Shown here: positions 18,421 to 33,500 of the stretch, in pieces
How the letters are laid out: every line of letters starts with the position of its first letter
How positions within the stretch are numbered: the stretch's first letter is position 1
Assembly (NCBI GenBank): GCA_050115495.1
Contig: JASFQK010000037.1
Location: 1 to 64,000 of the forward strand
Source: Phycisphaerae bacterium
Lineage (GTDB): Bacteria; Planctomycetota; Phycisphaerae; UBA1845; Fen-1342
Reading direction: 5' to 3'
DNA: 64,000 nucleotides
Position numbers and translations under genes: made by a program
The notes under the pieces: generated by a model
Database searches by the model: none
The model's input: only the letters and a program-made list of their open reading frames with translations
What the model was told of the DNA's origin: nothing

Positions 18421-19665
18421 TTATGCTTCGGTCGGGGCGTGGGGCAGGTCGAAGTAGATCATTGCCGTCGAGGGGACGACGGGATACTCGACGCGGCAGC
18501 GGTAGACGTCGAACGCCTGGTCATTCCACCCAAGGCGATCGAACACGTGGCGGGCCAATTCGGCGTAGCGGGGGAAGTCCTGCGTCTGGAGCACGGACGC
18601 CCCGCGTCCGAGATAGCTGACGGTCTCGCGCGTGGTTGGCAGGCTGCGTTGCCGCCACGGATCCTCACCGCGGCGTTCACAGAAGTGCTCAACACAGACG
18701 GCCGCGCCCGGCAAGTTCGCACCGAAAGTCCCCTCGTGCACCAGCAAATCCAGTACAACCGCTTCGCAGGGCGTCCGTACCTTCTGGCACGCATTGAACC
18801 GTGGGTCCTTCTCTCTCCAGTGGCGACAGCCGACTTCGCGTATCACATGCCCTTCGAAACAGGTAATTGCACTACACCGGCCAACACCTCTGCTGACGAA
18901 CTCCCCCTGGAACTCGTTCGAAGGCTCCTCGATCTCGCGAAACTCGGGCAGAGGCTCGCTGCAGAAGTCGGACAGCAGAGACATCCGATCAGCGCCAACA
19001 GCCGTGCCTAACGGCTCGCGGCAGACCTTCTGTATGCAGCCGGCAGGAGTAACAGCGCACGCCCGCGAGACGATCAGCGGGGCGTCGCCGCGCAGTTGGC
19101 GCAGGGAGATGATCCCCTCGACGCGGGCCATGTCGAACATTGTTGGGTTGGTTGCTGGCTGGACAGCCATGAACTTGAGCAGCGTCTTGGCCTGCATGCC
19201 CAGGATGTGCTTCAGCCCTCGAAAGACGAGGCGGCGATGTGCCAGGTCGATCTGCCTGGCCTCTTCGCCGTTCAGGAGCGAGCCGATCATGGAGTCAAAC
19301 GTCGCCCGGTCGCCAGCGTGCTTGTTGACCAGACGCTCGAGGTCGGCCGTGGCTTGCTCGGCGGCCTGGATGGTCCCGGCGTGCACGCCTTTGGCGGCAG
19401 CGGCCTCGAAGAACTTTTTGAGCACTGCAGGCGTCGGTACGTGCGGTGCGGCCGCGAGCGGATCGGCCGCCGTGGCCACCTTGTAGAGCCTCCAGCTCGC
19501 CGTCTTCTGAATGCGCAGGGCACGATGTAGATCGGCGCTATCGGTGACTGGGCCGGGAACCGCAGCGATCACATTGGCCAATCCAGCCCGTACGCGTCCT
19601 AGGACGGCGGCCGTCTCATCCTCAAACGATCCTCTTGCCCCGGCTTGTGGTTTTCGCTCAGCCAT
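18421..19665 (-). CDS. Uncharacterised protein with an N-terminal HTH-like region, probable transcription regulator
   Basis: Long clean ORF; SADLHRALRIQKTASWRLYK is HTH-like; no signal peptide; divergent from a secreted-protein operon; start may be 19707. Confidence 0.65.
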   Translation of the reverse strand: MAERKPQAGARGSFEDETAAVLGRVRAGLANVIAAVPGPVTDSADLHRALRIQKTASWRLYKVATAADPLAAAPHVPTPAVLKKFFEAAAAKGVHAGTIQAAEQATADLERLVNKHAGDRATFDSMIGSLLNGEEARQIDLAHRRLVFRGLKHILGMQAKTLLKFMAVQPATNPTMFDMARVEGIISLRQLRGDAPLIVSRACAVTPAGCIQKVCREPLGTAVGADRMSLLSDFCSEPLPEFREIEEPSNEFQGEFVSRGVGRCSAITCFEGHVIREVGCRHWREKDPRFNACQKVRTPCEAVVLDLLVHEGTFGANLPGAAVCVEHFCERRGEDPWRQRSLPTTRETVSYLGRGASVLQTQDFPRYAELARHVFDRLGWNDQAFDVYRCRVEYPVVPSTAMIYFDLPHAPTEA

Positions 19666-19681
19666 AACGCCTAGAATAAAC

Positions 19682-19754
19682 ATCTTCGCGTTCAAGTCAA
19701 TCTTCATGGGGTGGTATCTGCGAAGATTTACAGAAATCTTCCCACAAAGATTGA
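19682..19754. promoter_or_regulatory. Putative operator array: palindrome GAAGATTT-ACAG-AAATCTTC plus extra AAGAT/ATCTT half-sites
   Basis: Perfect 8-bp inverted repeat at 19722-19741; ATCTTC at 19682 and 19700; AAAGAT at 19746 overlapping the -35. Confidence 0.6.
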
Positions 19755-19779
19755 CACGAATTCACCGGCCTGTTACAGT
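19751..19779 (+). promoter_or_regulatory. sigma70-type promoter
   Basis: TTGACA-17 nt-TACAGT with an extended -10 TG. Confidence 0.75.
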
Positions 19780-20078: not shown

Positions 20079-22862
20079 ATGAATTGGAAGAGGTTCACTT
20101 TTGGATTGGGCGCCGTGCTGTTGTGTGCGAACATGATTGCATACAGCGCAGATCCCGCGAGCCCGACGGCGTCCGTTTCCACCGTGAGAGCGACGTTACC
20201 CAGGACTGCGGCGGTGATGCCTGCAACCACGTGGAAGGTCAGCTTCAAGACCGCAAGGAATCCAGTCCTGGCTGGTGGTGAAGCTCCCGTGACTGACGCA
20301 GTGAAGAAGAGCGACGTTACCCTCACGTTGGGCGGTTCGCGCGACGTGCCGGACAACGACACCTGCGAGAACGCGATCCCCGTCGCCACTTCGTATCCCA
20401 CCACGATCTGCGGAACAAACGTGGGTGCCACAGACGACTGCCCGGCGTACTTCGATGATTATGAAGGCGTCTGGTATGCGATCGAACTGCCGTACGAGTA
20501 CAACACTCTGGTGACCGACTACTGCGCGACCGACCTTGAGTGGCCGTGCGAGCTCGGAATCATCTGCTATGAAGACTGCAACGACTGCTCAGCCTTCATC
20601 GTCGGTGAAACTGATTGGCAGGATTGCGGCGACGGCAGTTGGAGCCCAAAGATCTGGTGGGAGGACCTGCCGGGGCCGACGACCGTGCTGCTTCCGATCT
20701 GGATCAACCCGGCCCAGGATTTCTGCATCACGGTCGACGTAACGGAGTCCTTCCCGTGCAGTGTCGATTGCCCGGAAGGAAGTGTTGCGGAAAGCGAGGC
20801 TTGCGGCGAGGACACCAACGGCGGCTGTGGCATGGATACGCCGGCGTTCGAGCCACTGACCTGCGGCGAGACAGTCTGCGGCACGGGCTGGGCCGAGGGG
20901 GGGGGGCGTGACACCGATTGGTACGAGATCACCATCGACGAACCAACCTTCATGACGTGGACGGTCGCGGGCGAATTCGAGAGTGGCGTGTGGGCCGGCC
21001 TGGTGGAAACGGAGATCCCCGGCGTGCCGGACTGTGATCTGTTGTCGGGAACACTCATAGACCATTGGGCGTATGACTGTGAAGAGTTCAGTATCACCTA
21101 TGCCGCACGTCCAGGCACCTACTGGTGGTTCGTTTGCCCTGTCGGTTACCAGAGGACGTCTTGCGACGCCCGGAATCAGTACGTTGCCACGATGAGGTGC
21201 CAGCCGTGGGAGATCCGCGGCGCCTGCTGTGACGAGGATACGGGCATTTGCAGGGACGGCGTCCTCATGCAGGATTGCCCTGAACCGATGCGTTTTACCG
21301 AGAACACGCTGTGTGCTGACTTGATGCCGCCGTGTGGCGGTTGCCCGGAGAGCACGATCGAGATCGAGATTCAGACCGATTATAACCCGTCTGAGACGAC
21401 ATGGGAGATTACGGATCACGACACCGGTGCGGTGATCTGCTCCGGCGGTCCCTACGAAACGCAGTTCTGGACGTACTTCGCGCACTGCTGCATCGGCGCG
21501 GACGACTGCTTCGACTTCACGATCTACGACTCCTATGGCGACGGCCACGGGACGATGGGTGGGTACGCCGTCCGTCTCGACGGCGTCGAGCTCATCAGCA
21601 CAATCGAAAGCGGCTGGTACGGCGCTGAGATCACCCACAGCGGCATCGGCGCCAACTGCGAAGCCGGCCGCTGCTGCTATGAGCCCTGGCCAAATTGCGC
21701 CGACGCGACACTGTTGGACTGTGTCAGCGTCTACGACGGCGTGTGGACCGAGGGGCTGACCTGTGAAACTGATCCGTGTCAGAATCCCGACATTCCCGAT
21801 TTCGAAGTCACTGCTCCGTATACGTCGCCCCAGCGAACCACTTGTGGTGGGATCGACCGTTGCCAGCCGGAAGGCAACCCCCTTGTCCACGAGGAACACG
21901 TTTATCTCGTCACGATTCCGAACGACGGCCTCTGGAGCTTCAACACGTGCCTGGAGACAACTTCGAGCACGTGGCTGTCGGTTGGTACGTCGATGTGCGA
22001 AACGGACATCGGTTGGAACGCGGGCGCCTGCGGCGAGTCTGCCGAACTCGTCGTGACCCTGGACGCCGGCGAGTACTTCGTCACCGTTGAAAACAGACTG
22101 CTGTGCGGAACGTACGTGCTCGACATTCACGAGGTCATCCCCTGCGACGTTGAGTGTCCGGCCGACGCTACGCGCGAATCCGAGCCGTGCGGTGAGAGCA
22201 TCAACAAGGGCTGCCACGGGCAGCCGGCTGTGTTCGAACCGATCGCTCTTAACCAGCCGATCTGTGGCACGCTCTGGGCTGCCAATATGGAAGCTGACAA
22301 TGACTGGTTCGAGTTCGTGGCTCCGGCAGATGACACGATAACGTGGTCGGTCCGGACGAACTTCGACGGCATCGTCGGCGTGGCCCACCAGATAGTGCCT
22401 GGCGAGCCAGGTTGCAGTAACCTCAGCGGTCTCGTCACTCCGAAAGTATGGACGTGGTCGGATTGCGAGGACGCGAGCGTATCATTCCCGGTCGTGGCTG
22501 GCGGCACCTACTACCTGTGCATCCTTCACCAGACGATGTACAACAATCCGTGCGGCACGACCAATGACTACGTCGCTACACTCACCGGCACCAACAACAT
22601 CTGCGGTGACCTCGATGGTGACGGCGATGTTGACCATGACGATTACATGATCTTCCTGGGCGCCTTCGGCACGTGCGTCGGCGAGGCCAACTACGTGGCC
22701 GAGGCGGACTTCGACGGTGACGGATGTATCACGCTCGTCGATTACCAATCGTGGGTGGTGTGTTACCGCGACACGAATCCGGGCGGTAAGTCCCCCATGC
22801 TCAATCCAAGCGCGAAGGGCAAGATCCGGAAGTTGCCCGTCGGAGACATCGAGCGACCGTAG
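20079..22862 (+). CDS. Secreted Cys/Asp-rich multidomain protein with duplicated PPC-like modules and a C-terminal dockerin-like domain
   Basis: Signal peptide; repeats PCSVDCP..ESEACGEDTNGGC..DTDWYEI and PCDVECP..ESEPCGESINKGC..DNDWFEF; GDLDGDGDVDHDD...ADFDGDGCITLVD. Confidence 0.85.
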   Translation: MNWKRFTFGLGAVLLCANMIAYSADPASPTASVSTVRATLPRTAAVMPATTWKVSFKTARNPVLAGGEAPVTDAVKKSDVTLTLGGSRDVPDNDTCENAIPVATSYPTTICGTNVGATDDCPAYFDDYEGVWYAIELPYEYNTLVTDYCATDLEWPCELGIICYEDCNDCSAFIVGETDWQDCGDGSWSPKIWWEDLPGPTTVLLPIWINPAQDFCITVDVTESFPCSVDCPEGSVAESEACGEDTNGGCGMDTPAFEPLTCGETVCGTGWAEGGGRDTDWYEITIDEPTFMTWTVAGEFESGVWAGLVETEIPGVPDCDLLSGTLIDHWAYDCEEFSITYAARPGTYWWFVCPVGYQRTSCDARNQYVATMRCQPWEIRGACCDEDTGICRDGVLMQDCPEPMRFTENTLCADLMPPCGGCPESTIEIEIQTDYNPSETTWEITDHDTGAVICSGGPYETQFWTYFAHCCIGADDCFDFTIYDSYGDGHGTMGGYAVRLDGVELISTIESGWYGAEITHSGIGANCEAGRCCYEPWPNCADATLLDCVSVYDGVWTEGLTCETDPCQNPDIPDFEVTAPYTSPQRTTCGGIDRCQPEGNPLVHEEHVYLVTIPNDGLWSFNTCLETTSSTWLSVGTSMCETDIGWNAGACGESAELVVTLDAGEYFVTVENRLLCGTYVLDIHEVIPCDVECPADATRESEPCGESINKGCHGQPAVFEPIALNQPICGTLWAANMEADNDWFEFVAPADDTITWSVRTNFDGIVGVAHQIVPGEPGCSNLSGLVTPKVWTWSDCEDASVSFPVVAGGTYYLCILHQTMYNNPCGTTNDYVATLTGTNNICGDLDGDGDVDHDDYMIFLGAFGTCVGEANYVAEADFDGDGCITLVDYQSWVVCYRDTNPGGKSPMLNPSAKGKIRKLPVGDIERP

Positions 22863-22868
22863 GCTGAA

Positions 22869-22921
22869 CGCGGGCGGGGGGCTGCCCGTCGGCCTCGTGC
22901 CGGCGGGCAGGTCCTCCCGCG
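22869..22921 (+). other. GC-rich intercistronic stem-loop
   Basis: CGCGGG..CTGCCCGTCGGC / GCCGGCGGGCAG..CCCGCG; no U-tract. Confidence 0.6.
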
Positions 22922-22981
22922 CTGTGCCGGTTCTGAGGAGTGTTTTGACTACTGCCGAAGGAATTCGGAGGAGGCTTTGAC

Positions 22982-23524
22982 ATGAGAAGACTGCTGTGTT
23001 CCCTGATCACGGTTGCGGCGCTGGCTGTGAGCGCATCCGCCGCCATCACGATCGACTTCGACCCGTGTGACGCGTACATCTACGGCATCGGCAACACGGT
23101 CGACGTGGACATCATTGCCGACATCCCCGAGGCCGACGCGATCCTCGGCTGGGGGATGGACGTCATCGTCGACGATCCGTCGATCGCCGACATCACGCAC
23201 GTGGCCATCAACGAAGTGCTGTTCGATGCGGCGTACGCACCGGACGGCGACGGGCTGGCCGCGCTGGTTCCCAACGCCGGGACCGTGTGGGGCGACGACA
23301 TCGTGCTCGCCACGCTGACGTTCACCGCGTACGACGGCTATGACATCTGGACGGAGATCTGGGGCTCGGACGACAACCCGAGCGACCTTATGGAAGGGTT
23401 CGCGCTGGACGGCGGCGGCTTCGCCGATGTGCAGTACCTGACCGGCTTCGTCAATGTCGAGATTCCCGAACCGGCGTCATTGGCGCTGCTGGCCCTGGCG
23501 GCGCTGGCGCTGCGTCGCCGGTAG
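22982..23524 (+). CDS. Cohesin-like PEP-CTERM protein
   Basis: Signal peptide; GNTVDVDI..ILGWGMDV..DDPSIADI...LATLTFTA cohesin-like pattern; IPEPASLALLALAALALRRR. Confidence 0.8.
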   Translation: MRRLLCSLITVAALAVSASAAITIDFDPCDAYIYGIGNTVDVDIIADIPEADAILGWGMDVIVDDPSIADITHVAINEVLFDAAYAPDGDGLAALVPNAGTVWGDDIVLATLTFTAYDGYDIWTEIWGSDDNPSDLMEGFALDGGGFADVQYLTGFVNVEIPEPASLALLALAALALRRR

Positions 23525-23660: not shown

Positions 23661-24377
23661 TCAGCGGTGGCGTAGGGCGACCAGTCCGCAGAGCAGCAAC
23701 TGGGACATGGCCGGCTCTGGCATCCAGCCGTAGGCGAGCCCATCCACATCCATGAACTCCCCCGGGGCTCCCCATTGGTTGTCGGACGCCAGCACGACAT
23801 TCAGGGGAATCCTCGTGCCGATCGGACCGGCATGGTAGGCCAACACGCCCTCGCACCAATAGTCGATCCCTTGGCCGTGCGGCCACGTGTCCGCGCAGAA
23901 GAACGCGTAGCCAGCACTCCATGAGTACCCCGTCGGCACGAATTCCGGGCCCTCACCGAGGTCGTCCAGCACAAGGATCTGGTGATCGGGCGTAAAGCGA
24001 AAGCCCGATGTCGGCAGCCCGTCTCGACCGCGACCCAGCAGGTCGTACGTCGTTCGCGGGGATACGTCGGAGAAGCTCACTTCGGCGTACAGGAATCCCC
24101 AGTCTATGTCAGAAGGGAAATACTCGGCGGGGCTAACCGCTTCGACGCGCTGCCCACTGGGCACATTCTCATCTGTGGAGAAGCGCAGGTGCTTCTGCCC
24201 CCAGGAGGGGTGTTCGTCCGAGATCTCCGGGGCCGTGACTCCTGTGCTGGTCCAGCCATGCTGTCCCGCAATCGGTCCCAGCGCGTAGTTCTCAAAACCG
24301 ACAAGCTGCGTGCGGACGCCAGCGGCGGTGACGCACAATGGCAGTGCCGCGCACGCGATAGCAATCCACCATTTCAT
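23661..24377 (-). CDS. PEP-CTERM protein (beta-sandwich)
   Basis: AAGGAG RBS, signal MKWWIAIACAALPL, FENYALGPIAGQHGW, MPEPAMSQLLLCGLVALRHR. Confidence 0.8.
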   Translation of the reverse strand: MKWWIAIACAALPLCVTAAGVRTQLVGFENYALGPIAGQHGWTSTGVTAPEISDEHPSWGQKHLRFSTDENVPSGQRVEAVSPAEYFPSDIDWGFLYAEVSFSDVSPRTTYDLLGRGRDGLPTSGFRFTPDHQILVLDDLGEGPEFVPTGYSWSAGYAFFCADTWPHGQGIDYWCEGVLAYHAGPIGTRIPLNVVLASDNQWGAPGEFMDVDGLAYGWMPEPAMSQLLLCGLVALRHR

Positions 24378-25471: not shown

Positions 25472-28400
25472 CTATTCGGGGCCGGTGTAGAAGCCACTGA
25501 GCAGGGTCATGTCGTCCTGATCAATGTCTCCGTCACCGTCGACGTCGACGCAGGTGCAGCCGCCGCCCACGCCGCCACCGTCGCCGCTGAAGCAGGACTG
25601 GAACGTCGCGAAGTCCAGCAGGTCCACGTCGCTGTCCTCGTCGCAAGAGTGCGGCAGCATCCCGAACTGGAGGTTGTCGACGACCAGCGAGGCACCGTCG
25701 CCCCAGGTGAACAGGCCGTTTTGCATCGAGAGCGTCACGGCGAAAGCGTCCATCCCGACCAGCGAGCCCGGTACGGGGCCGACCACCGTCTCGAAATCCT
25801 CCGCCAGGAGTGCCCCGCTCGGATCGGAAACGGCGACGTTGTCGAAGTACACGGTGGCGCCGGTGCCCCAGGTTGGCGTGCGATACCCGAAGACGATGAT
25901 AGTCGCGATGTAGGACGGGGCGCTTGTGTCGAACCCATCCTCGGCCGTGAAGGTGTTCAGCGTTCCACCCAGCGTGTGGAAGGTGCCGTCGACCGCGGGG
26001 CTGTCCCAGGAGATCCGGCGACCGTTCTGGTCTTCGAGCCGCAGGGTGATCATGCCCGCCGACTCGCCGGCGCCCGGATCCCAGACGCCCTTGCAGTCGG
26101 CCGTAAACGACACCTGGCTGAGATTGCTCATGTTGATCTCGATGCCGGGCCAGGCCACGCCGGCCCAGTACCAGCCGGGGGGCGACTGGATGCCGGTCAC
26201 GGTGAGCTTGCCGCCGCCGCCGCCGCCGACACCGCAGTCCGTGCAGCCCTCGACGGACGCCGTTTCGATCGAGGCGCCCCAGCCGAAGCCGGCGAACGCC
26301 GTCTCGCCTTCGATCCCGATGTCCCAGGAAGTAATCGTGGAGCCCCACTCGGGATAGAACTGGCCGCCCTCCGGTGGCCAGGTGGACTCGCCGTCGGCCA
26401 GCACGGCGCCGACGGACTGGAACGTGCCGTCCGCGGTGCCGGCGAAGCTGACGTGGCCGGCCTCCTTGAGCCGCGGGGCAGGGGACGGCGACAGGTAGAC
26501 GTCATCGACCGTCAACGTGCCACCCCAGTTGCCATACGCTGAAGAGGGCGGCCCTTCGCCGATGAACATGATGACCACGGCGTAGCTTAGATTCGTGTCG
26601 AGGTCGAAGACGCCGTTGCTGCCGTCCGCGAAGCCGCTGACCGTGTAGCCAGACAGCGGGCCGCCGATGGACTGATACGTGCCGTCGTAAACCTGGTCGA
26701 AGCCGATCCAGTCGCCGTCCGGGTCTTCGAGCCGCAGGATGTACTGGGCCGGTTCCTGGAGCCACGACTCGTTCCACGTGCCCTTGACCTTCGCGGAGAT
26801 GGTCACGTTGGCCAGGTTCGTGGAGGCCAGGATCTGGTCGCGCCAGGCAGCGCCGGCGTACCAGTAGCCGTAGTCCTCCGGCCAGACGTCCCGCACTTCG
26901 ATCTGCATGCAGCTACCGTTGTCGCCGTAGCCGCCGGTCGTGAGCCCGCGCACCCACACGCCGCCCGTGGCTGTCACCGTGGCGTCCACGGCGTGGAAGA
27001 AGGCCTCTTCGTTGTCAATCTGCGAGTTCCAGTCCTCGAACGTGACATCGGTCTCATCTGTGGCGGCGATCTGTACTTCCGTGTCGGTGGTAATCGCCGC
27101 GAAGTCCTCGTCGACGTTCGGAATCGCCACGTACCCTTGCAGGCGGAGTTCGTACTTCGCACCGACGACGTTGCCCTGCACGTCAGCCGACATCGTCACG
27201 TACCGCGGGTCCAGCGTGCTCATCGGGGGCAGATCCCAGACCAGTGCTCCCGAGAAGTCGCTGCCGTCGGGGCGGTCGTTCGTCAGCACGAGATTGTCGA
27301 TGATCAGAGAGCCGCCGGTTCCCCAGGTCGGCGCCCGAGTCGGGTCGAAGAGCAGCATGACCCTGAAGGTTTCCGAATCGAAGTCGAACACGCCGGTCGC
27401 AGGGACGTCCGACGAGTTCTTCTCGATGGCCTGATCCAGCGTGCCGCCGATGGCTTGCCAGGTGCCGTCGGCAACGACCGGTGATTCGAAGACGAGCCGA
27501 TCGCCGTCGGCATCCTCGACGCGGAGCTGGTAGTGGCCGTAGATCTCGCCCTCCGCCGTGTTGGCATCGCCCTTGATGTCGGCGGTGAGGCTGTACTCGC
27601 TGCGGTCGAAGGCCGGCGGTCCGGAAATCACCTGGAAGGACACCGTGTCGAAGAAGACCGCGCCGCCGTCAGAGCCGGGATGGACCAACTGCAAGGCCGC
27701 CCGCACGGTCAGCGTGCCCGCCGGGGCCGTGAGCTGGATCGGCGTGTTGTCAATCCACGTGTCCAGCGGCGACGAACCGTCGAGCACCGTGGCAGCGGTC
27801 GTCGCCAGGGGCTCCTCGCTGATGCCGTCGTAGAACTCGATCCGCATCTCCGCGTAGTTGGAAGTGCCGTCGATTCCGTCGGCGGCGTGATGCGAGGACC
27901 AGCAGTCGAGTTGCCAGGTCTGCCCCGGCTCGGCGCGCAGTTCCTGAGCGACGCCCGCGGAGTTCATCCCGGAGGCGCGACCCCAGACCTTCAAGTCCTG
28001 TGAACCTGCCTGCGGATCGGTCGTGACGATGAGTACGCTCGGATAGGAGCCGCTCGTATCACACCAAACGTCCCAGCCGGCGATGGTGTCCCACAAGCCC
28101 AACTCGAAACCCGGATTCTGCAGAACTCCCGAGCCACCGGGCCACACCGGAATAGACCACGCCAATCCGGCGTACCAGTTTCCGCCGTTCAGGGTGACGT
28201 CCGTGACAGCGATCTGGCCGCCGCCGGTTCCGCCGAGGCCGCCGTTGGTCAGGCCCTGGGCGGAGGCGTCGCCGTTGAGCACGGCGCCGCTGCGCATGTA
28301 GCAGAACGCCGACTCATCCTCGATGCCGTCGTCCCAGTCGGACGTTGTCGCGCTGAGGTTGGGCGTGTATCCGTCTCCGACGAGGAAGGCGCCGCCGCCG

Positions 28401-28753
28401 GTGCCGGTTACGCTGTCGAGGTACTCCTCGACCATGTTGAGGGAATCGAGGAGGACCGCCAACTGACCGGCGCCCGTGCCGCCCACGCCGCCGCCGGGCA
28501 AGCCCTGGGCGGACATCTGGACACGAGCCAGACCGGTCGCCTGGCCCATGGCGGACTCGCCGAAGATGCCGTCATCCCAGTCGACGAACCAGCCGGAGCC
28601 CAGTTGATCCAGGAATACTCCGCCGCCGGTACCGGTGACCGTGTCGAAGTCCTCATCCACGAGCTGTGCCGTCGCAACTCCGCCGGTGGCGAATGCCAGC
28701 AGCAGAACGACGGTCGCAACAGGGAACCTCACTCTCTTCTGCCCAGCCGCCAT
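25472..28753 (-). CDS. Secreted ~1093-aa protein with four nested copies of a CBM-like beta-sandwich, a CBM4/9-like insert and a dockerin-like tail
   Basis: Signal peptide; repeated EDF, WDDGI..E.A, WYAG.AW, LR.ED.DG, DGT(W/Y/F)Q..GG.L, WG.G..L..DN motifs; LQNPGFE; CDEDSDVDLLD...DVDGDGDIDQDD. Confidence 0.85.
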   Translation of the reverse strand: MAAGQKRVRFPVATVVLLLAFATGGVATAQLVDEDFDTVTGTGGGVFLDQLGSGWFVDWDDGIFGESAMGQATGLARVQMSAQGLPGGGVGGTGAGQLAVLLDSLNMVEEYLDSVTGTGGGAFLVGDGYTPNLSATTSDWDDGIEDESAFCYMRSGAVLNGDASAQGLTNGGLGGTGGGQIAVTDVTLNGGNWYAGLAWSIPVWPGGSGVLQNPGFELGLWDTIAGWDVWCDTSGSYPSVLIVTTDPQAGSQDLKVWGRASGMNSAGVAQELRAEPGQTWQLDCWSSHHAADGIDGTSNYAEMRIEFYDGISEEPLATTAATVLDGSSPLDTWIDNTPIQLTAPAGTLTVRAALQLVHPGSDGGAVFFDTVSFQVISGPPAFDRSEYSLTADIKGDANTAEGEIYGHYQLRVEDADGDRLVFESPVVADGTWQAIGGTLDQAIEKNSSDVPATGVFDFDSETFRVMLLFDPTRAPTWGTGGSLIIDNLVLTNDRPDGSDFSGALVWDLPPMSTLDPRYVTMSADVQGNVVGAKYELRLQGYVAIPNVDEDFAAITTDTEVQIAATDETDVTFEDWNSQIDNEEAFFHAVDATVTATGGVWVRGLTTGGYGDNGSCMQIEVRDVWPEDYGYWYAGAAWRDQILASTNLANVTISAKVKGTWNESWLQEPAQYILRLEDPDGDWIGFDQVYDGTYQSIGGPLSGYTVSGFADGSNGVFDLDTNLSYAVVIMFIGEGPPSSAYGNWGGTLTVDDVYLSPSPAPRLKEAGHVSFAGTADGTFQSVGAVLADGESTWPPEGGQFYPEWGSTITSWDIGIEGETAFAGFGWGASIETASVEGCTDCGVGGGGGGKLTVTGIQSPPGWYWAGVAWPGIEINMSNLSQVSFTADCKGVWDPGAGESAGMITLRLEDQNGRRISWDSPAVDGTFHTLGGTLNTFTAEDGFDTSAPSYIATIIVFGYRTPTWGTGATVYFDNVAVSDPSGALLAEDFETVVGPVPGSLVGMDAFAVTLSMQNGLFTWGDGASLVVDNLQFGMLPHSCDEDSDVDLLDFATFQSCFSGDGGGVGGGCTCVDVDGDGDIDQDDMTLLSGFYTGPE

Positions 28754-28903
28754 GGTCTGGCTCCTTCTTCTTCCGATGCCCGGCAGTCGCCCCACAATGC
28801 GGCCACCGAGATGCGTCGCTCCTGTCCCTATGGCTCCGGCGGCGTCGCCGTCGGCGGCAACATCCCGGGCCGGAGCGTCTCGTCCACCACGTGCCATACA
28901 GTC

Positions 28904-31786
28904 TCAATCGGTGTTCTTGCGTATCTCCAACGTGCCCAGATAGTAGAACCCGTATTCGTTCGTGTTCGTCGCGCCCTTGTCGATGGTAATCGTGATGGCG
29001 TTCTGGGCGTTCGGCCCCATGTCCAGAATGCCGGCGATTTCCGATTGGTTATTGGACGCGTCGAGTGTTTCCATCGCCACGGACGAGCCGATCACGAGGT
29101 AGTCCGTCGTCCGGATATCCGCGACGCCCATGCGCGAGGCGAAGAAGATCAGGTCGTAGGTCGCCGTGGGATCCAGACCGGACAGCGTGATCCGTGCCAC
29201 CGGGAACGTGCCGCCGCTGAAGGGGATGCTGTTCCCGAAGAGCGAGTCCTGGAGAGCCGTGATGGGGTATTGCAGCGCGTCCAGGTCACTGCTCGGGGCA
29301 GGGCTGGTCGTGCCATTGGTGTTGGCCCCGTTGAATCGATAGGAGGGGTCGATCGTCAGCACGATACCGCTGGATTCGCCCGCCGCCGTGTCGAGCGGAA
29401 TGGCGCTGCCCATGTTGCTGGTGTGCACGTTGTTCCAGTAGCGCGGCGCGCCGCTCGTCGTCAACGTGGGGCTGCCGAAGTCAACCAGCACGACGTCATT
29501 CGTGACGGCCGGCGTCACCGTGAGGTACACCTCGAGCGTGCAGTCCACATAGCCGGGGGCGAAGGCCGTCACCGTGGCCCAGTGGCTTCCGAGCGACAGG
29601 CCCAGGGCGTCCACATCGAGCGTGATCGGCGAGCCGGCGACCCACGAGGCCGGCAGGCTCAACCAGGTCGGCGCTTCTTGTGTCGCCTGGTCGATCGCCA
29701 CCAGCTTCACGATCGGCGTGCTGGAGTCGCTGGCCACGACGATGGTCGTGCCCTGCGTGGTCTCGTCCTGGACGACGCTCAGCGTCAGCTCGTCCGGCTG
29801 GAACGCCAGCTCGGGCGGCGGCGGCACGTAGGCGATCTGAGACTCGGCGAAGTCGACCAGGTCCACGTCGCCGTCGCCGTCGGCATCCACGATGCAGCAA
29901 AGCCCGTCGTACAAGGGTGGATCGCAATAGGCCGTGGGGCAGGGGCCCGTCAGACACTCGGACTGCTCCGCAGCCCCGCTCGACGGGATGGCGACGCGCA
30001 CGTTGTCGAAGATGACGAAAGCGTGGCCCGTCGTGTTCTGCCCGACGTAGTGATCGAACAGCCCCAGCATGATATTGCCGGAGTCGAAGCCGGATTCGTT
30101 CGCCGCCTCGTAGATGACGGTGCCGTTGAGCTTCCAGGTGACCACGCCGTCCTGCTGCGTGATCTCCCCCTCGACCCACTGGCGTCCCGGCGAGCCCGCC
30201 GCGGAGTCGCCGATCGGGTCGCCGCTGACGGCGGGGAAGAGGTCGCGCAGCAGCGGTTGGGTTTCGTCCCAGTGCGGAACCGGAAGCCGTGTCGGTGCGG
30301 CCTCCTCGTTCCCGTAGTACGCGTTGTAGTCCTTGATTACGCCGCCAGTGGGGTAGTACCCCACGGCATCGCCACCGTCGCCGGCCACGGCGAAGAAGAC
30401 GCCGTCCGAATCCGACGTGACGGCTTCCGACCCGGCGAGCCTCGACCCGCTATGGTTGATGCCGAAGCAGGCGTGCTCGGTGGACTCCGGCGAATTCCAG
30501 CTTATGTACATGTCCCAGCGCAGGGAGAAGTCACCGTCGAAGAACCAGCCGGTGGGGAAGGCGCAGACGCCGGACGGGGCCGCGGGCCCGGCGGCCGTGT
30601 TGGCCGTCATCTTCAGGCCGCGCGTCGTGCCGCCTTGCGAATTGGGGGCGCTCGGAATCGACGCCGCGCCGTAGTCGAAGTTGAATACGGCCGAGTCACC
30701 GCTGCCGCCCGCGATGATCGTCCAGGCGGCCGAGGTATCCGTATCGAAGTCGTCCGACCATACGGTCGCCCAGATTCGTTCGCACTCGTCGGGAACGCCG
30801 TTGCCGTCACAATCGTCACTCGTACCCGCACTGATATCGCAGTCGTCGGGGATCGTGTTCCCGTTGCAGTCGGTTTCACGCCAGTCGGGCACGCAGTTCG
30901 CGTTGCAGTCCGACCCCGCGGCGCCGCAGGGGTGCGGGATCACCGCGTCGGCATACGCCTGGAGGTCCGCTGCTTCCTGTTCGGTCAGGCTGCCGAACAC
31001 CTTGGGCAGGCCGACCACGCTCTCGGAGTAGACCGTTCCGTAAATGACCAGGGCGGCGAGGTACGTTCCACGCGAGTTGGCGTGATAGAGATCGGAGGCG
31101 TGGAGGTTGGCCCAGCCGGTGTCCTCCCAGGCATCGCCCACCGGTGCCACCCACGCGCGATCTGCGCCGAGCGTGATGTCGATGTCCTGCTCCGCCTCTC
31201 GATAACCTGCCCGGAGCTCCTCCTGCATCTGCGCGGGGCCGCCGGGGAACGAGGGGTTGGCCCCGCTGTAGTATTCGTGTCCCGGTGCCCGGGCCCAGGT
31301 CTCGTACAGAATCGCGCCGGCGCCGGGGCTGTGGCTCCGGACCTCGCCGTACAGGGCGAGCAGGTCGGTGCGGAACTGGTTGAGCGCACCGATGTGCGTG
31401 GGTCGCGTCGAGTACCCCTGGAGGACCACGTAATCCCACTGGAAGCCGGGATCAGCCACGAAATCCTGCGGTGTGCTGATGACGGCCAGGTTGTTGGTCA
31501 GGTGCCAGGTCAGCGTTTGGCCACTCGCCGCGGCGTTCTCGATGTTGGGGTCCGCGTGCCCCGCGGCCGTGGCCAGTATGCCGACCACCCCCGGTACGCC
31601 TCCCAGGACTTCCGCCTCCGAAGAGCCCGAGCCCAGCGTGAAGCTGTTGCCGTAGAACAGGATGGTCAGCGGCTCATCCGCCCGGGCAGCGCCCGGCAGA
31701 CCAGCCAGGAGAGTGGCTCCACACGCCACCACGAGGCAAGCCGCGCGGAGACCGCCCCCGTGATTGGTACATCGTTTGTCACTCAC
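28904..31786 (-). CDS. Secreted multidomain SGNH (DUF4886-like) esterase with DCNxN repeats, lectin-like, dockerin-like and Ig-like domains
   Basis: ILFYGNSFT, WDYVVLQ, YETWAR, APVGDAW, DLYHAN; DCNANCVPD/DCNGNTIPDDC/DCDGNGVPDEC; DADGDGDVDLVDFA; GGAGGT RBS. Confidence 0.85.
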   Translation of the reverse strand: MSDKRCTNHGGGLRAACLVVACGATLLAGLPGAARADEPLTILFYGNSFTLGSGSSEAEVLGGVPGVVGILATAAGHADPNIENAAASGQTLTWHLTNNLAVISTPQDFVADPGFQWDYVVLQGYSTRPTHIGALNQFRTDLLALYGEVRSHSPGAGAILYETWARAPGHEYYSGANPSFPGGPAQMQEELRAGYREAEQDIDITLGADRAWVAPVGDAWEDTGWANLHASDLYHANSRGTYLAALVIYGTVYSESVVGLPKVFGSLTEQEAADLQAYADAVIPHPCGAAGSDCNANCVPDWRETDCNGNTIPDDCDISAGTSDDCDGNGVPDECERIWATVWSDDFDTDTSAAWTIIAGGSGDSAVFNFDYGAASIPSAPNSQGGTTRGLKMTANTAAGPAAPSGVCAFPTGWFFDGDFSLRWDMYISWNSPESTEHACFGINHSGSRLAGSEAVTSDSDGVFFAVAGDGGDAVGYYPTGGVIKDYNAYYGNEEAAPTRLPVPHWDETQPLLRDLFPAVSGDPIGDSAAGSPGRQWVEGEITQQDGVVTWKLNGTVIYEAANESGFDSGNIMLGLFDHYVGQNTTGHAFVIFDNVRVAIPSSGAAEQSECLTGPCPTAYCDPPLYDGLCCIVDADGDGDVDLVDFAESQIAYVPPPPELAFQPDELTLSVVQDETTQGTTIVVASDSSTPIVKLVAIDQATQEAPTWLSLPASWVAGSPITLDVDALGLSLGSHWATVTAFAPGYVDCTLEVYLTVTPAVTNDVVLVDFGSPTLTTSGAPRYWNNVHTSNMGSAIPLDTAAGESSGIVLTIDPSYRFNGANTNGTTSPAPSSDLDALQYPITALQDSLFGNSIPFSGGTFPVARITLSGLDPTATYDLIFFASRMGVADIRTTDYLVIGSSVAMETLDASNNQSEIAGILDMGPNAQNAITITIDKGATNTNEYGFYYLGTLEIRKNTD

Positions 31787-31819
31787 GCGGCACCTCCGCC
31801 TGTGGGGAGCCTCGCAGGC

Positions 31820-32698
31820 CTACCTGCGCCGTCGGAGCACGCACGCTCCGACGGCGAGCAGGAGAAGCCCGCTGGACGGCTCGGGCACGATGAACTGATC
31901 CGCTGCGGCGGAGAGGTAGTCGCCGTAGGGCTCCGGCATGCCCAGGCTCGCCAGCACGTCCGTCAGGTCGATGTCGCTGACGTCGTCCTCGTAGATCGTT
32001 CCGTAGATGACCAGCGACGCCAGCAACGTACCGCGGTTGTTCGCGTGGTAGCGGTCGGCGGCGTGCAGGTTGCTCCAACCGGTGTATTCCCACGCGTCGC
32101 CCACGGGGGCCACGCGCGACGTCTCGATGCCGGTCAGGGCGTTGACATCGGCCGTGGAGAGGGCGTACCCGTCCCGCAGCTCCTGCTGCATCTGGGCCGG
32201 CCCGCCGGGGAACTCCGGCGGACTGCCTTCGTAGAACTCGTGCCCCGGTGCGCGGGCCCAGGTCTCGAACCCGATCACCTGCGCGTCCGGGCTGTGGGCC
32301 GCGACCGCCTGGTACATCGAGACGAAGTCGGCCCGGTGGGCCGCCAGATCGCCGATGTGCGTCGGCTGCGTGGAGTAGTCCTGCAGAATGACGTAATCCC
32401 ACGTCTGACCGGCGGGGATGCCGGTGGTAATGATCCCGAGGTTGCTCGCCAGATGATCCCCCAGGCTCCAGCCTTCCACGGCGGCGCTGACCACGTACGG
32501 ATCTTCCTGGCCGGCCGCCACGGCGATGTCGTTCACCAGATCGGAGACGCTTCGCGTGCTCCAGGAGCCGAGGGTGAAGCTGTTGCCGTAGAAGAGCAGT
32601 TTCTTCTCGGCACTGGCCGGAGCGACCAGGATGAGCATCGCCACCAGCGCAACGGCGGCCCGGCCAGGATGTCTGCAGGCCTGCGCATGTCGGAACAT
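31820..32698 (-). CDS. SGNH (DUF4886-like) PEP-CTERM protein
   Basis: LLFYGNSFT, FETWAR, DRYHAN; VPEPSSGLLLLAVGACVLRRRR. Confidence 0.88.
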   Translation of the reverse strand: MFRHAQACRHPGRAAVALVAMLILVAPASAEKKLLFYGNSFTLGSWSTRSVSDLVNDIAVAAGQEDPYVVSAAVEGWSLGDHLASNLGIITTGIPAGQTWDYVILQDYSTQPTHIGDLAAHRADFVSMYQAVAAHSPDAQVIGFETWARAPGHEFYEGSPPEFPGGPAQMQQELRDGYALSTADVNALTGIETSRVAPVGDAWEYTGWSNLHAADRYHANNRGTLLASLVIYGTIYEDDVSDIDLTDVLASLGMPEPYGDYLSAAADQFIVPEPSSGLLLLAVGACVLRRRR

Positions 32699-32807
32699 GA
32701 CAGTCTCCACTTTCCCAGCGCTTCCGCGACCGGCGGTCTCCGCAGGCCTGCGCGCAGGACGGGTAGACATCTCCTGCGCGACAAGCCCGCGGAGATCTGC
32801 GCGGCGT

Positions 32808-33500
32808 TTAGCGCCGCCGCAGGACCGCCACACCGCCAAGCAGGAGCAGGGTCAGCGTCGCCGGTTCGGGCACGACGTCCATCTTCATGGCGCCGAGGTA
32901 GTAGAACCCGTAGCTGTTGTTGTTGTTGGGGCCGGGCTGCACGTCGACGGTGATCTCGCCGGTGGGCGTCGGGCTGATGCCCGAGATCACCACGACGTTG
33001 CTCGTGTTGCCCACGGATTCCAGCACGGCGCTGCCGGCGTTCATGCCGGTGATGTCGTACTGGGCCTCACGGTTGTCGCTGGAGCCCATCCGCGACGCGA
33101 AGATCGTGAAGTCGTAGGTCAGCGCGGGGTCCAGTCCCGTCAGACGGAACCCGGCCGTCGGCTGAACCTGCTCGTACCAGGGCTGCGTGCAGCCATACAG
33201 GCTGTCGCGGGTGGCCTGCGGATCGAAGATCGCGGCGTCGCCGGTCGGCGACTGCGTTCCGTTGTTGTTGGCCGACGTCGTGTAAAAGGCGTCGTACACG
33301 GTCAAGCCGATCCCGGTGTAGGCGCCGCTGTCATTGACGCAGTCGGCGATGGGGTACTGGTGCCAGTCGAGGTTGTTGTAGTTGCCGGGGGTGTGATTCG
33401 GTTCGTCGCCGAAATCGAAGAACAACGACTCTGCCATTGCCGGCATGGCCAGCGCGAACAGGCACGCGATCACCACCACACTCATTGCTGCACGGTACAT
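32808..33500 (-). CDS. PEP-CTERM protein, single beta-rich domain
   Basis: AGGAGG RBS, signal peptide, VPEPATLTLLLLGGVAVLRRR; homologous to the last domain of 28904-31786. Confidence 0.88.
   Translation of the reverse strand: MYRAAMSVVVIACLFALAMPAMAESLFFDFGDEPNHTPGNYNNLDWHQYPIADCVNDSGAYTGIGLTVYDAFYTTSANNNGTQSPTGDAAIFDPQATRDSLYGCTQPWYEQVQPTAGFRLTGLDPALTYDFTIFASRMGSSDNREAQYDITGMNAGSAVLESVGNTSNVVVISGISPTPTGEITVDVQPGPNNNNSYGFYYLGAMKMDVVPEPATLTLLLLGGVAVLRRR

Follow-up and report, generated by a model that had tools for sequence, protein, structure and literature searches.

A two-gene cassette in a Phycisphaerae bacterium probably encodes an exosortase-sorted docking protein together with the large exported protein that it holds. 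We analysed a window of 64,000 nt (contig JASFQK010000037.1 of assembly GCA_050115495.1, hereafter G000, which measures 5.97 Mb and is 92% complete), in which two open reading frames (ORFs) lie on the same strand with a gap of 119 nt, the first (20079-22862, +) encoding 927 aa and the second (22982-23524, +) 180 aa. The small product carries a cohesin fold and a PEP-CTERM tail and is predicted to be a socket for the upstream-encoded protein (the cargo), whose dockerin belongs to a tryptophan-bearing subtype (Trp-type); after processing by exosortase this socket likely holds the cargo at the envelope. An original prediction, made from the sequence alone, had described the small protein as a one-cohesin surface anchor that captures dockerin-tagged cargo, and as a whole that interpretation is supported, with the amendments given below.

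The 180-aa protein consists of a signal peptide, one cohesin-fold domain and a PEP-CTERM tail, as had been predicted. Its AF2 model (pLDDT 92) shows the nine-strand beta-sandwich of a cohesin, and when this model was compared with solved structures by VIA-align the top 20 rows were all cohesins, with 6kgc_A as the best match (Z 14.1, rmsd 2.4 over 132 residues) and the best non-cohesin at Z 8.4. Foldseek agrees on the fold (E 2.5e-6), and the ESM Atlas neighbours fall into Cohesin and PEP-CTERM clusters, 14-24% of whose members carry PF00963. Identity to solved cohesins is 5-21%. A search at E <= 0.001 gave 57 homologs of comparable length, the protein itself included; none of the 53 that were aligned matches Pfam Cohesin (PF00963) at E <= 1, and searches of Pfam and of PDB sequences with the family returned no cohesin match. 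This null result was considered as proof that the small protein contains no cohesin, an idea rejected after the fold searches. The family is a divergent cohesin subfamily outside the membership of PF00963, and given that Pfam misses it entirely, annotation-based surveys would overlook it.

The tail places the protein in the PEP-CTERM/exosortase system, which was reportedly described by Haft et al. in 2006. All features of a substrate are present, namely a signal peptide (called by eye, without a predictor, as were all signal peptides here), a PEP motif, a membrane helix, a basic end and, at genome level, one exosortase gene (168 bits). By pattern count the source genome holds 133 PEP-CTERM genes, and the small protein has six paralogs in it.

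The cargo protein was modelled as a chain of beta-sandwich domains (pLDDT 75, pTM 0.38), three of which resemble PPC / collagen-binding domains (Z 13.1, 10.9 and 8.9). It matches no catalytic family in Pfam or NCBIfam, Foldseek on the whole model gave matches at TM <= 0.12 only, and the protein may serve in adhesion or ligand binding. The original prediction had it ending in two DxDGDG loops; two Asp-rich loops are indeed present at residues ~843-900, but they are followed by a low-confidence tail of 27 aa, and the dockerin therefore lies near, not at, the C-terminus. Two repeats of a calcium loop and a helix are recognizable from invariant or near-invariant Asp positions and from the pair of helices modelled there. 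Among solved structures, residues 840-898 align with dockerins (2ozn_B at Z 7.5, rmsd 1.7 over 54 residues; 2vn5_B at Z 6.8), and Pfam Dockerin_1 matches residues 843-889 at E 0.008 with 16.8 bits, under its curated cut-off of 22.9. Symmetric repeats allow two binding orientations in type I dockerins, according to the available text of PMC12484212. The two Trp-type repeats differ in consensus, and a Trp-type dockerin would be expected to bind in a single mode. Behind the first dockerin-like repeat, many Trp-type cargo proteins have an additional one of a different type (L011-L013, L022, L023, L087, L089, L090, L098-L100), and such cargo could bridge two docking systems.

The link between the two genes was assessed within the source genome by means of a Trp-type profile based on 17 dockerins upstream of cohesin, all from other genomes. 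Exactly five proteins among 55,163 ORFs reached at least 54 bits, the next scoring 21.6, and all five genes lie directly 5' of a cohesin-PEP paralog. The common dockerins of this genome (NFD type) provide the comparison: 129 genes end in their symmetric repeats by pattern count (a stricter pattern gives 104 dockerin ORFs of all types), none of which lies directly 5' of a cohesin-PEP paralog, and only seven of which precede any PEP-CTERM gene. Given this contrast (5/5 vs 0/129), the adjacency of cargo and cohesin genes exceeds chance, and the pairing is restricted to one dockerin subtype distinct from the common one. The repeats of the Trp-type dockerin are unlike each other, with DY-x2-W-x2-C in the second helix, whereas NFD repeats are near-identical. 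Also found in the source genome were four HYR-repeat proteins with Pfam cohesin matches (two above cut-off) and dockerin-like ends (C25:69359-72538, C3:22965-26012, C38 near 17990 and C2 near 156766; L123-L126). Instead of the sockets, the 129 common-type dockerins likely bind other proteins, for which these HYR-cohesin proteins are candidates.

Complex prediction was carried out in ESMFold2 with alignments and two calcium ions. The cohesin-dockerin pair reached an ipSAE of 0.83 as opposed to 0.42 for the best control, in agreement with the proposed binding; this mark is reached by 116 of 157 solved and by 2 of 215 mismatched pairs, counts that hold only roughly for this model. Runs share at least 97% of contacts, with partner pLDDT of at least 85. 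The best-defined contacts join L55-G58, L95 and A141-L142 of the cohesin to L860, F863, L886, Y889 and Q890 of the dockerin, with W892 and Y896 in the interface too. In the model, which docks mainly the second repeat, the interface holds the subtype-defining Y889, Q890, W892 and Y896 as well as the conserved cohesin residues G56-G58, L95 and E138-G139, and conservation is modestly higher in the cohesin columns at the interface than elsewhere (0.61 vs 0.49). Calcium-dependent dockerin binding by the small protein is predicted from this complex. Fold, complex model and gene pairing all favour the capture of dockerin-tagged cargo, but the partner indicated by the evidence is one dockerin subtype and not, as first proposed, dockerin cargo in general.

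Conservation of the gene pair was borne out beyond the source genome. A set of 61 related genomes gave 51 cohesin matches, of which 34 have a Trp-type dockerin that ends no more than 1 kb upstream and 36 have one within 2.5 kb, counts that include the seed loci; for eight of the 15 unpaired matches the contig itself ends within 0.5 kb upstream. Among the 12 best-scoring cohesin loci of unseeded genomes nine are paired (L188-191, 193, 195, 198, 200 and 204, not L194, 196 and 202). An order-wide scan of 251 genomes, with 16-24 candidates scored in each, found the cohesin family in 85 and the Trp-type dockerin (E <= 1e-16) in 90, both occurring in 71 genomes vs 30 expected, a statistic computed over kin genomes that are not independent; at E <= 1e-19 the scan gave 69 genomes with both, 16 with cohesin only, 8 with dockerin only and 158 with neither. 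A further 300 genomes sampled from the phylum, with only 13 candidates scored in each, gave no match to the cohesin profile, and the small protein as a single query against genome contigs found one locus only. On metagenome contigs retrieved without reference to cohesin, a PEP-tailed gene that scores on the cohesin profile comes next after seven of 11 Trp-type dockerin genes (two close family members, four distant ones at 25-42 bits and one split by a frameshift), compared with one of nine other dockerins, three of the nine being at contig ends. The low-GC contigs among them probably come from other phyla. Cohesin-profile matches were also seen inside open frames of 591-925 aa (L222, L223 and L224, in G471, G463 and G373), which suggests fused forms of this cohesin, and split or frameshifted copies of cargo or cohesin genes (L151 with L155 on C104 of G003, L174, and C92 of G014) reflect assembly error or decay.

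The 21 paired cargo bodies fall into six unrelated BLAST clusters (a GEVED/GBD/PPC group of 12, a DUF11 group of three, a beta-helix/PMP group of three, and three singletons), and homologs of the present body carry a Trp-type tail in 27 of 74 cases, some that are 59-61% identical over the body bearing other dockerins. Given these unrelated bodies and exchanged tails, sequence comparison indicates that dockerin tail and cohesin form the conserved unit while the cargo body varies. Glycoside hydrolase or peptidase families were not found in the paired bodies by Pfam, whose coverage of them is poor, and a scan of 22 cargo proteins, paired or adjacent, likewise showed no glycoside hydrolase family. 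The cargo body itself has matches in only four of 151 genomes searched, and few homologs in the metagenome scan. A variant without cargo was also found: of 14 genomes that have the cohesin and no Trp-type dockerin, ten (G051, 382, 391, 399, 409, 413, 416, 432, 446 and 511) have a cohesin-PEP gene behind a dockerin-only ORF of 113-195 aa with a lipoprotein-like signal, called by eye, and a Trp-less dockerin. The order of dockerin then cohesin therefore persists when both partners diverge. In the remaining four genomes, two cohesin genes come after a gene resembling an adaptor, one after an unrelated gene, and one sits at a contig end. Dockerin-only lipoprotein-like ORFs directly 5' of divergent cohesin-PEP genes were listed at L114, L206-L208, L210-L215, L217, L219 and L220.

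Based on these data, we propose the following course of events. Sec would likely export both proteins, and the dockerin, folded on calcium, would dock in one orientation, through its second repeat, onto a beta-sheet face of the cohesin. Processing of the PEP-CTERM tail by exosortase would then keep the socket at the envelope, where it would display the large binding protein. Trp-type dockerin genes that are not linked to a cohesin gene likely encode extra cargo of the same socket.

Several points weigh against this proposal, in addition to the kinship of the genomes behind the co-occurrence counts. Given that cohesin-dockerin complexes have already been solved, the pair being a textbook one, the model may have passed because of its likeness to known structures, and as a modelling result the pass says nothing on specificity. 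A sixth cohesin-PEP paralog in the source genome (on C8) follows another PEP-CTERM gene and has no dockerin gene upstream, and orphan cohesins occur among related genomes. Seen from the dockerin side, only 37 of 78 matches have a cohesin within 2.5 kb downstream, the 78 being near-full-length matches picked by hand among 150 listed, with generic-looking shorter ones dropped and three rows from G017 kept without a check for the Trp; and eight of 77 genomes with a dockerin match at E <= 1e-19 have no cohesin match. Two rather complete genomes, G019 (98% complete, nine Trp-type dockerin genes) and G057 (94%, four such genes), gave no match to the cohesin profile or to Pfam Cohesin. Tree congruence was seen (Mantel r 0.51), an observation that we set aside as proof of co-evolution, since duplication of the cassette alone would yield it. 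Finally, the fate of PEP-CTERM proteins is described as unsettled, surface-attached or released, in the available text of PMC12188702, and a lasting surface anchor is for this reason something that we infer.

This last point leads to the most serious alternative, to which we give a small but real chance: the pair binds specifically, and the cohesin is a released or periplasmic escort, an export tag or a matrix cross-linker instead of a surface anchor. Some exosortase substrates may even be periplasmic (PMC12188702, available text), Trp-type cargo is kept in G019 and G057 despite their lack of a detectable cohesin, and the cargo-less pairing of a dockerin lipoprotein with a cohesin in ten genomes goes beyond simple cargo display. 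By analogy, however, a C-terminal sorting signal serves as the cell anchor in single-cohesin proteins of cellulosome producers, as far as the accessible part of PMC12484212 goes, and a 1:1 cassette with binding-domain cargo would fit display. It is improbable that the two genes are co-inherited neighbours whose products do not bind, the cohesin fold being a lectin-like or structural module. Beta-sandwiches of this type are common, little sequence identity is shared with solved cohesins, and orphans exist on both sides; yet the linkage goes with the dockerin tail even where the cargo body has been replaced, low-GC metagenome contigs show it again with distant cohesin-PEP genes, and the complex model passes on conserved residues. 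Least probable by a narrow step is that cohesin-PEP proteins act as all-purpose sockets for every dockerin type in the genome, with the neighbouring gene as just one client, a many-to-one design that six sockets for more than 100 dockerin proteins, and divergent family members behind Trp-less dockerins, would fit, but against which stand the absence of sockets behind NFD-type genes, the symmetry of NFD repeats and their differences at the modelled interface, the separate Pfam-positive HYR-cohesin proteins of the source genome, and the 166 of 251 order genomes without a match to this cohesin family, several of which (e.g., G032 and G036) have dozens of weaker dockerin matches.

It can be speculated, with somewhat less than even confidence, that diderms operate parallel dockerin address codes that do not cross-react, the Trp-type being read by an exosortase-anchored cohesin and the ~130 common-type dockerins by other partners, while the cargo-less form links membranes, surface layers or cells. 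Any protein that gained the 58-residue Trp-type tail would then be displayed.

Features of the cassette and its immediate surroundings are collected in the table.

Table. Features of the cassette and its flanks in the 64,000-nt window.
Feature	Position	Strand	Evidence
927-aa exported Cys-rich cargo: signal peptide, tandem beta-sandwich domains, dockerin	20079..22862	+	Pfam/NCBIfam, model
PPC / collagen-binding-domain-like beta-sandwich, residues 234-374	20778..21200	+	VIA-align Z 13.1, rmsd 2.2 over 110 residues, 1nqd_A
Two more PPC-like beta-sandwich domains, residues ~571-687 and ~707-837	21789..22589	+	5sv5_A Z 10.9; 8k1b_B Z 8.9; weak Pfam PPC at 740-814
Asymmetric Trp-type dockerin, two Asp-rich loop-helix repeats; second helix DY-x2-W-x2-CY	22605..22778	+	Profile, alignment, structure match
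GC-rich stem-loop without U-tract, intergenic between cargo and cohesin genes	22864..22932	+	z about -3
Signal peptide of 180-aa protein, residues 1-21	22982..23044	+	By eye; A-x-A end conserved in alignment
Single cohesin-fold domain, residues 22-161	23045..23464	+	AF2 model, Foldseek, VIA-align, ESM Atlas
PEP-CTERM sorting tail	23462..23524	+	PF07589 21.8 bits (cut-off 20.7); TIGR02595 16.2 bits (cut-off 16)
Sigma-70-like promoter candidate, 10/12, extended -10, 300 nt 5' of cargo gene	19751..19779	+	Consensus match only; 2 found vs 1.1 expected by chance
Divergent 428-aa gene, unannotated 57-member family	18421..19707	-	Not cassette-specific

A hairpin like the intergenic stem-loop also lies 3' of each of the four remaining paired cargo genes, a weak one (z -2.0) in one case, and 16 of 60 control genes have one at z <= -2.5; as a speculation, the hairpin behind the cargo stop could tune the ratio of the two transcripts. 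The 428-aa gene was considered as part of the cassette and rejected, its 57-member family standing beside many exported-protein genes; a member is divergent to four of the five cassettes and likewise to many other exported-protein genes. Members of this ~420-aa family in the source genome have no convincing Pfam or NCBIfam match, most are divergent to PEP-CTERM or dockerin-tailed genes, and the family resembles a dedicated regulator family for exported proteins. Downstream of the cassette, a convergent exported-protein gene (23661-24374, -) has a degenerate PEP-CTERM-like end and no match in Pfam or NCBIfam. A dockerin-tailed gene at 25472-28897 neighbours SGNH/DUF4886-like paralogs (28904-32839, -), of which the 960-aa one has an internal dockerin-like loop and the shorter one a PEP-CTERM end.

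The closest known counterparts of the small protein are ScaE of Ruminococcus flavefaciens (sortase, LPXTG; 2zf9) and OlpA and OlpC of Clostridium thermocellum (3ul4, 4dh2), which likewise combine one cohesin with an envelope attachment signal and share its fold (Z 10.8-12.5). OlpA and OlpC are anchored through SLH domains. Unlike ScaE and OlpA, the present protein has a PEP-CTERM tail in a diderm and is encoded with non-catalytic cargo in a two-gene cassette, which is without a multi-cohesin scaffoldin and has an asymmetric, cysteine-bearing dockerin. Sortase and SLH anchoring of single-cohesin proteins in cellulosome producers is covered in the available text of PMC12484212. A cellulosome is here taken, following the accessible part of PMC11557425, as a multi-cohesin scaffoldin that carries dockerin-tagged glycoside hydrolases; the cassette has one cohesin per protein and no glycoside hydrolase family in scanned cargo, and it would work like an anchoring scaffoldin and is not a cellulosome.

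Within the same phylum, the planctosome of freshwater Phycisphaerae (Andrei et al., 2019, PMC6461901) is likewise a genome-predicted, non-cellulosomal use of cohesin and dockerin, and its "adaptor", as described in the available text, is resembled by the HYR-cohesin(-dockerin) proteins of the source genome. Its anchor is a 2,210-aa lamin-tail-domain protein and its cargo consists of peptidases, and the available main text holds no PEP-CTERM, one-domain socket or dedicated dockerin subtype (PMC6461901). None of its hallmarks (lamin-tail anchor, HYR adaptor, dockerin peptidases) occurs in the cassette, no genome-wide lamin-tail search having been made. Cohesin-dockerin pairs outside cellulose degradation have also been described for NagJ-NagH of Clostridium perfringens (2ozn), whose 2ozn_B is the closest structure to the cargo dockerin, for Archaeoglobus fulgidus (2xdh), for anaerobic methanotrophic (ANME) archaea (PMC9012536, PMC5244752) and for Ca. 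Stygibacter (PMC8542988). A PEP-CTERM-tailed cohesin or a paired cassette of two genes is absent from the accessible portions of these accounts, the comparison not extending to the ANME domain lists (S4 Data, PMC9012536), where cohesins bearing archaeal sorting tails could occur. A literature search, from which supplements and most subscription papers fell outside coverage, found no description of a PEP-CTERM-bearing cohesin. Non-cellulosomal cohesin-dockerin modules are widespread, with partners and roles stated to be unknown in the available text (PMC5244752, PMC9012536), and against this background the cassette is a specific, small and expressible diderm pair with a negative control built in, the NFD dockerins of the same genome.

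With the PEP-CTERM/exosortase system, as far as the available text of PMC12188702 describes it, the cassette shares a signal peptide with a PEP-CTERM tail, the presence of a genomic exosortase and numerous co-resident substrates; it differs in that the sorted protein here would be an adaptor for a second exported protein. Most PEP-CTERM proteins have no defined job, and the cassette would give one of them a concrete adaptor role and offers a route to testing whether exosortase substrates remain on the surface. Should the pair prove orthogonal, it would also be a new plug-and-socket for surface display. Compared with these known systems, what is new from this locus is the subtype-exclusive pairing seen against a large internal control, together with the cargo-less lipoprotein-dockerin variant.

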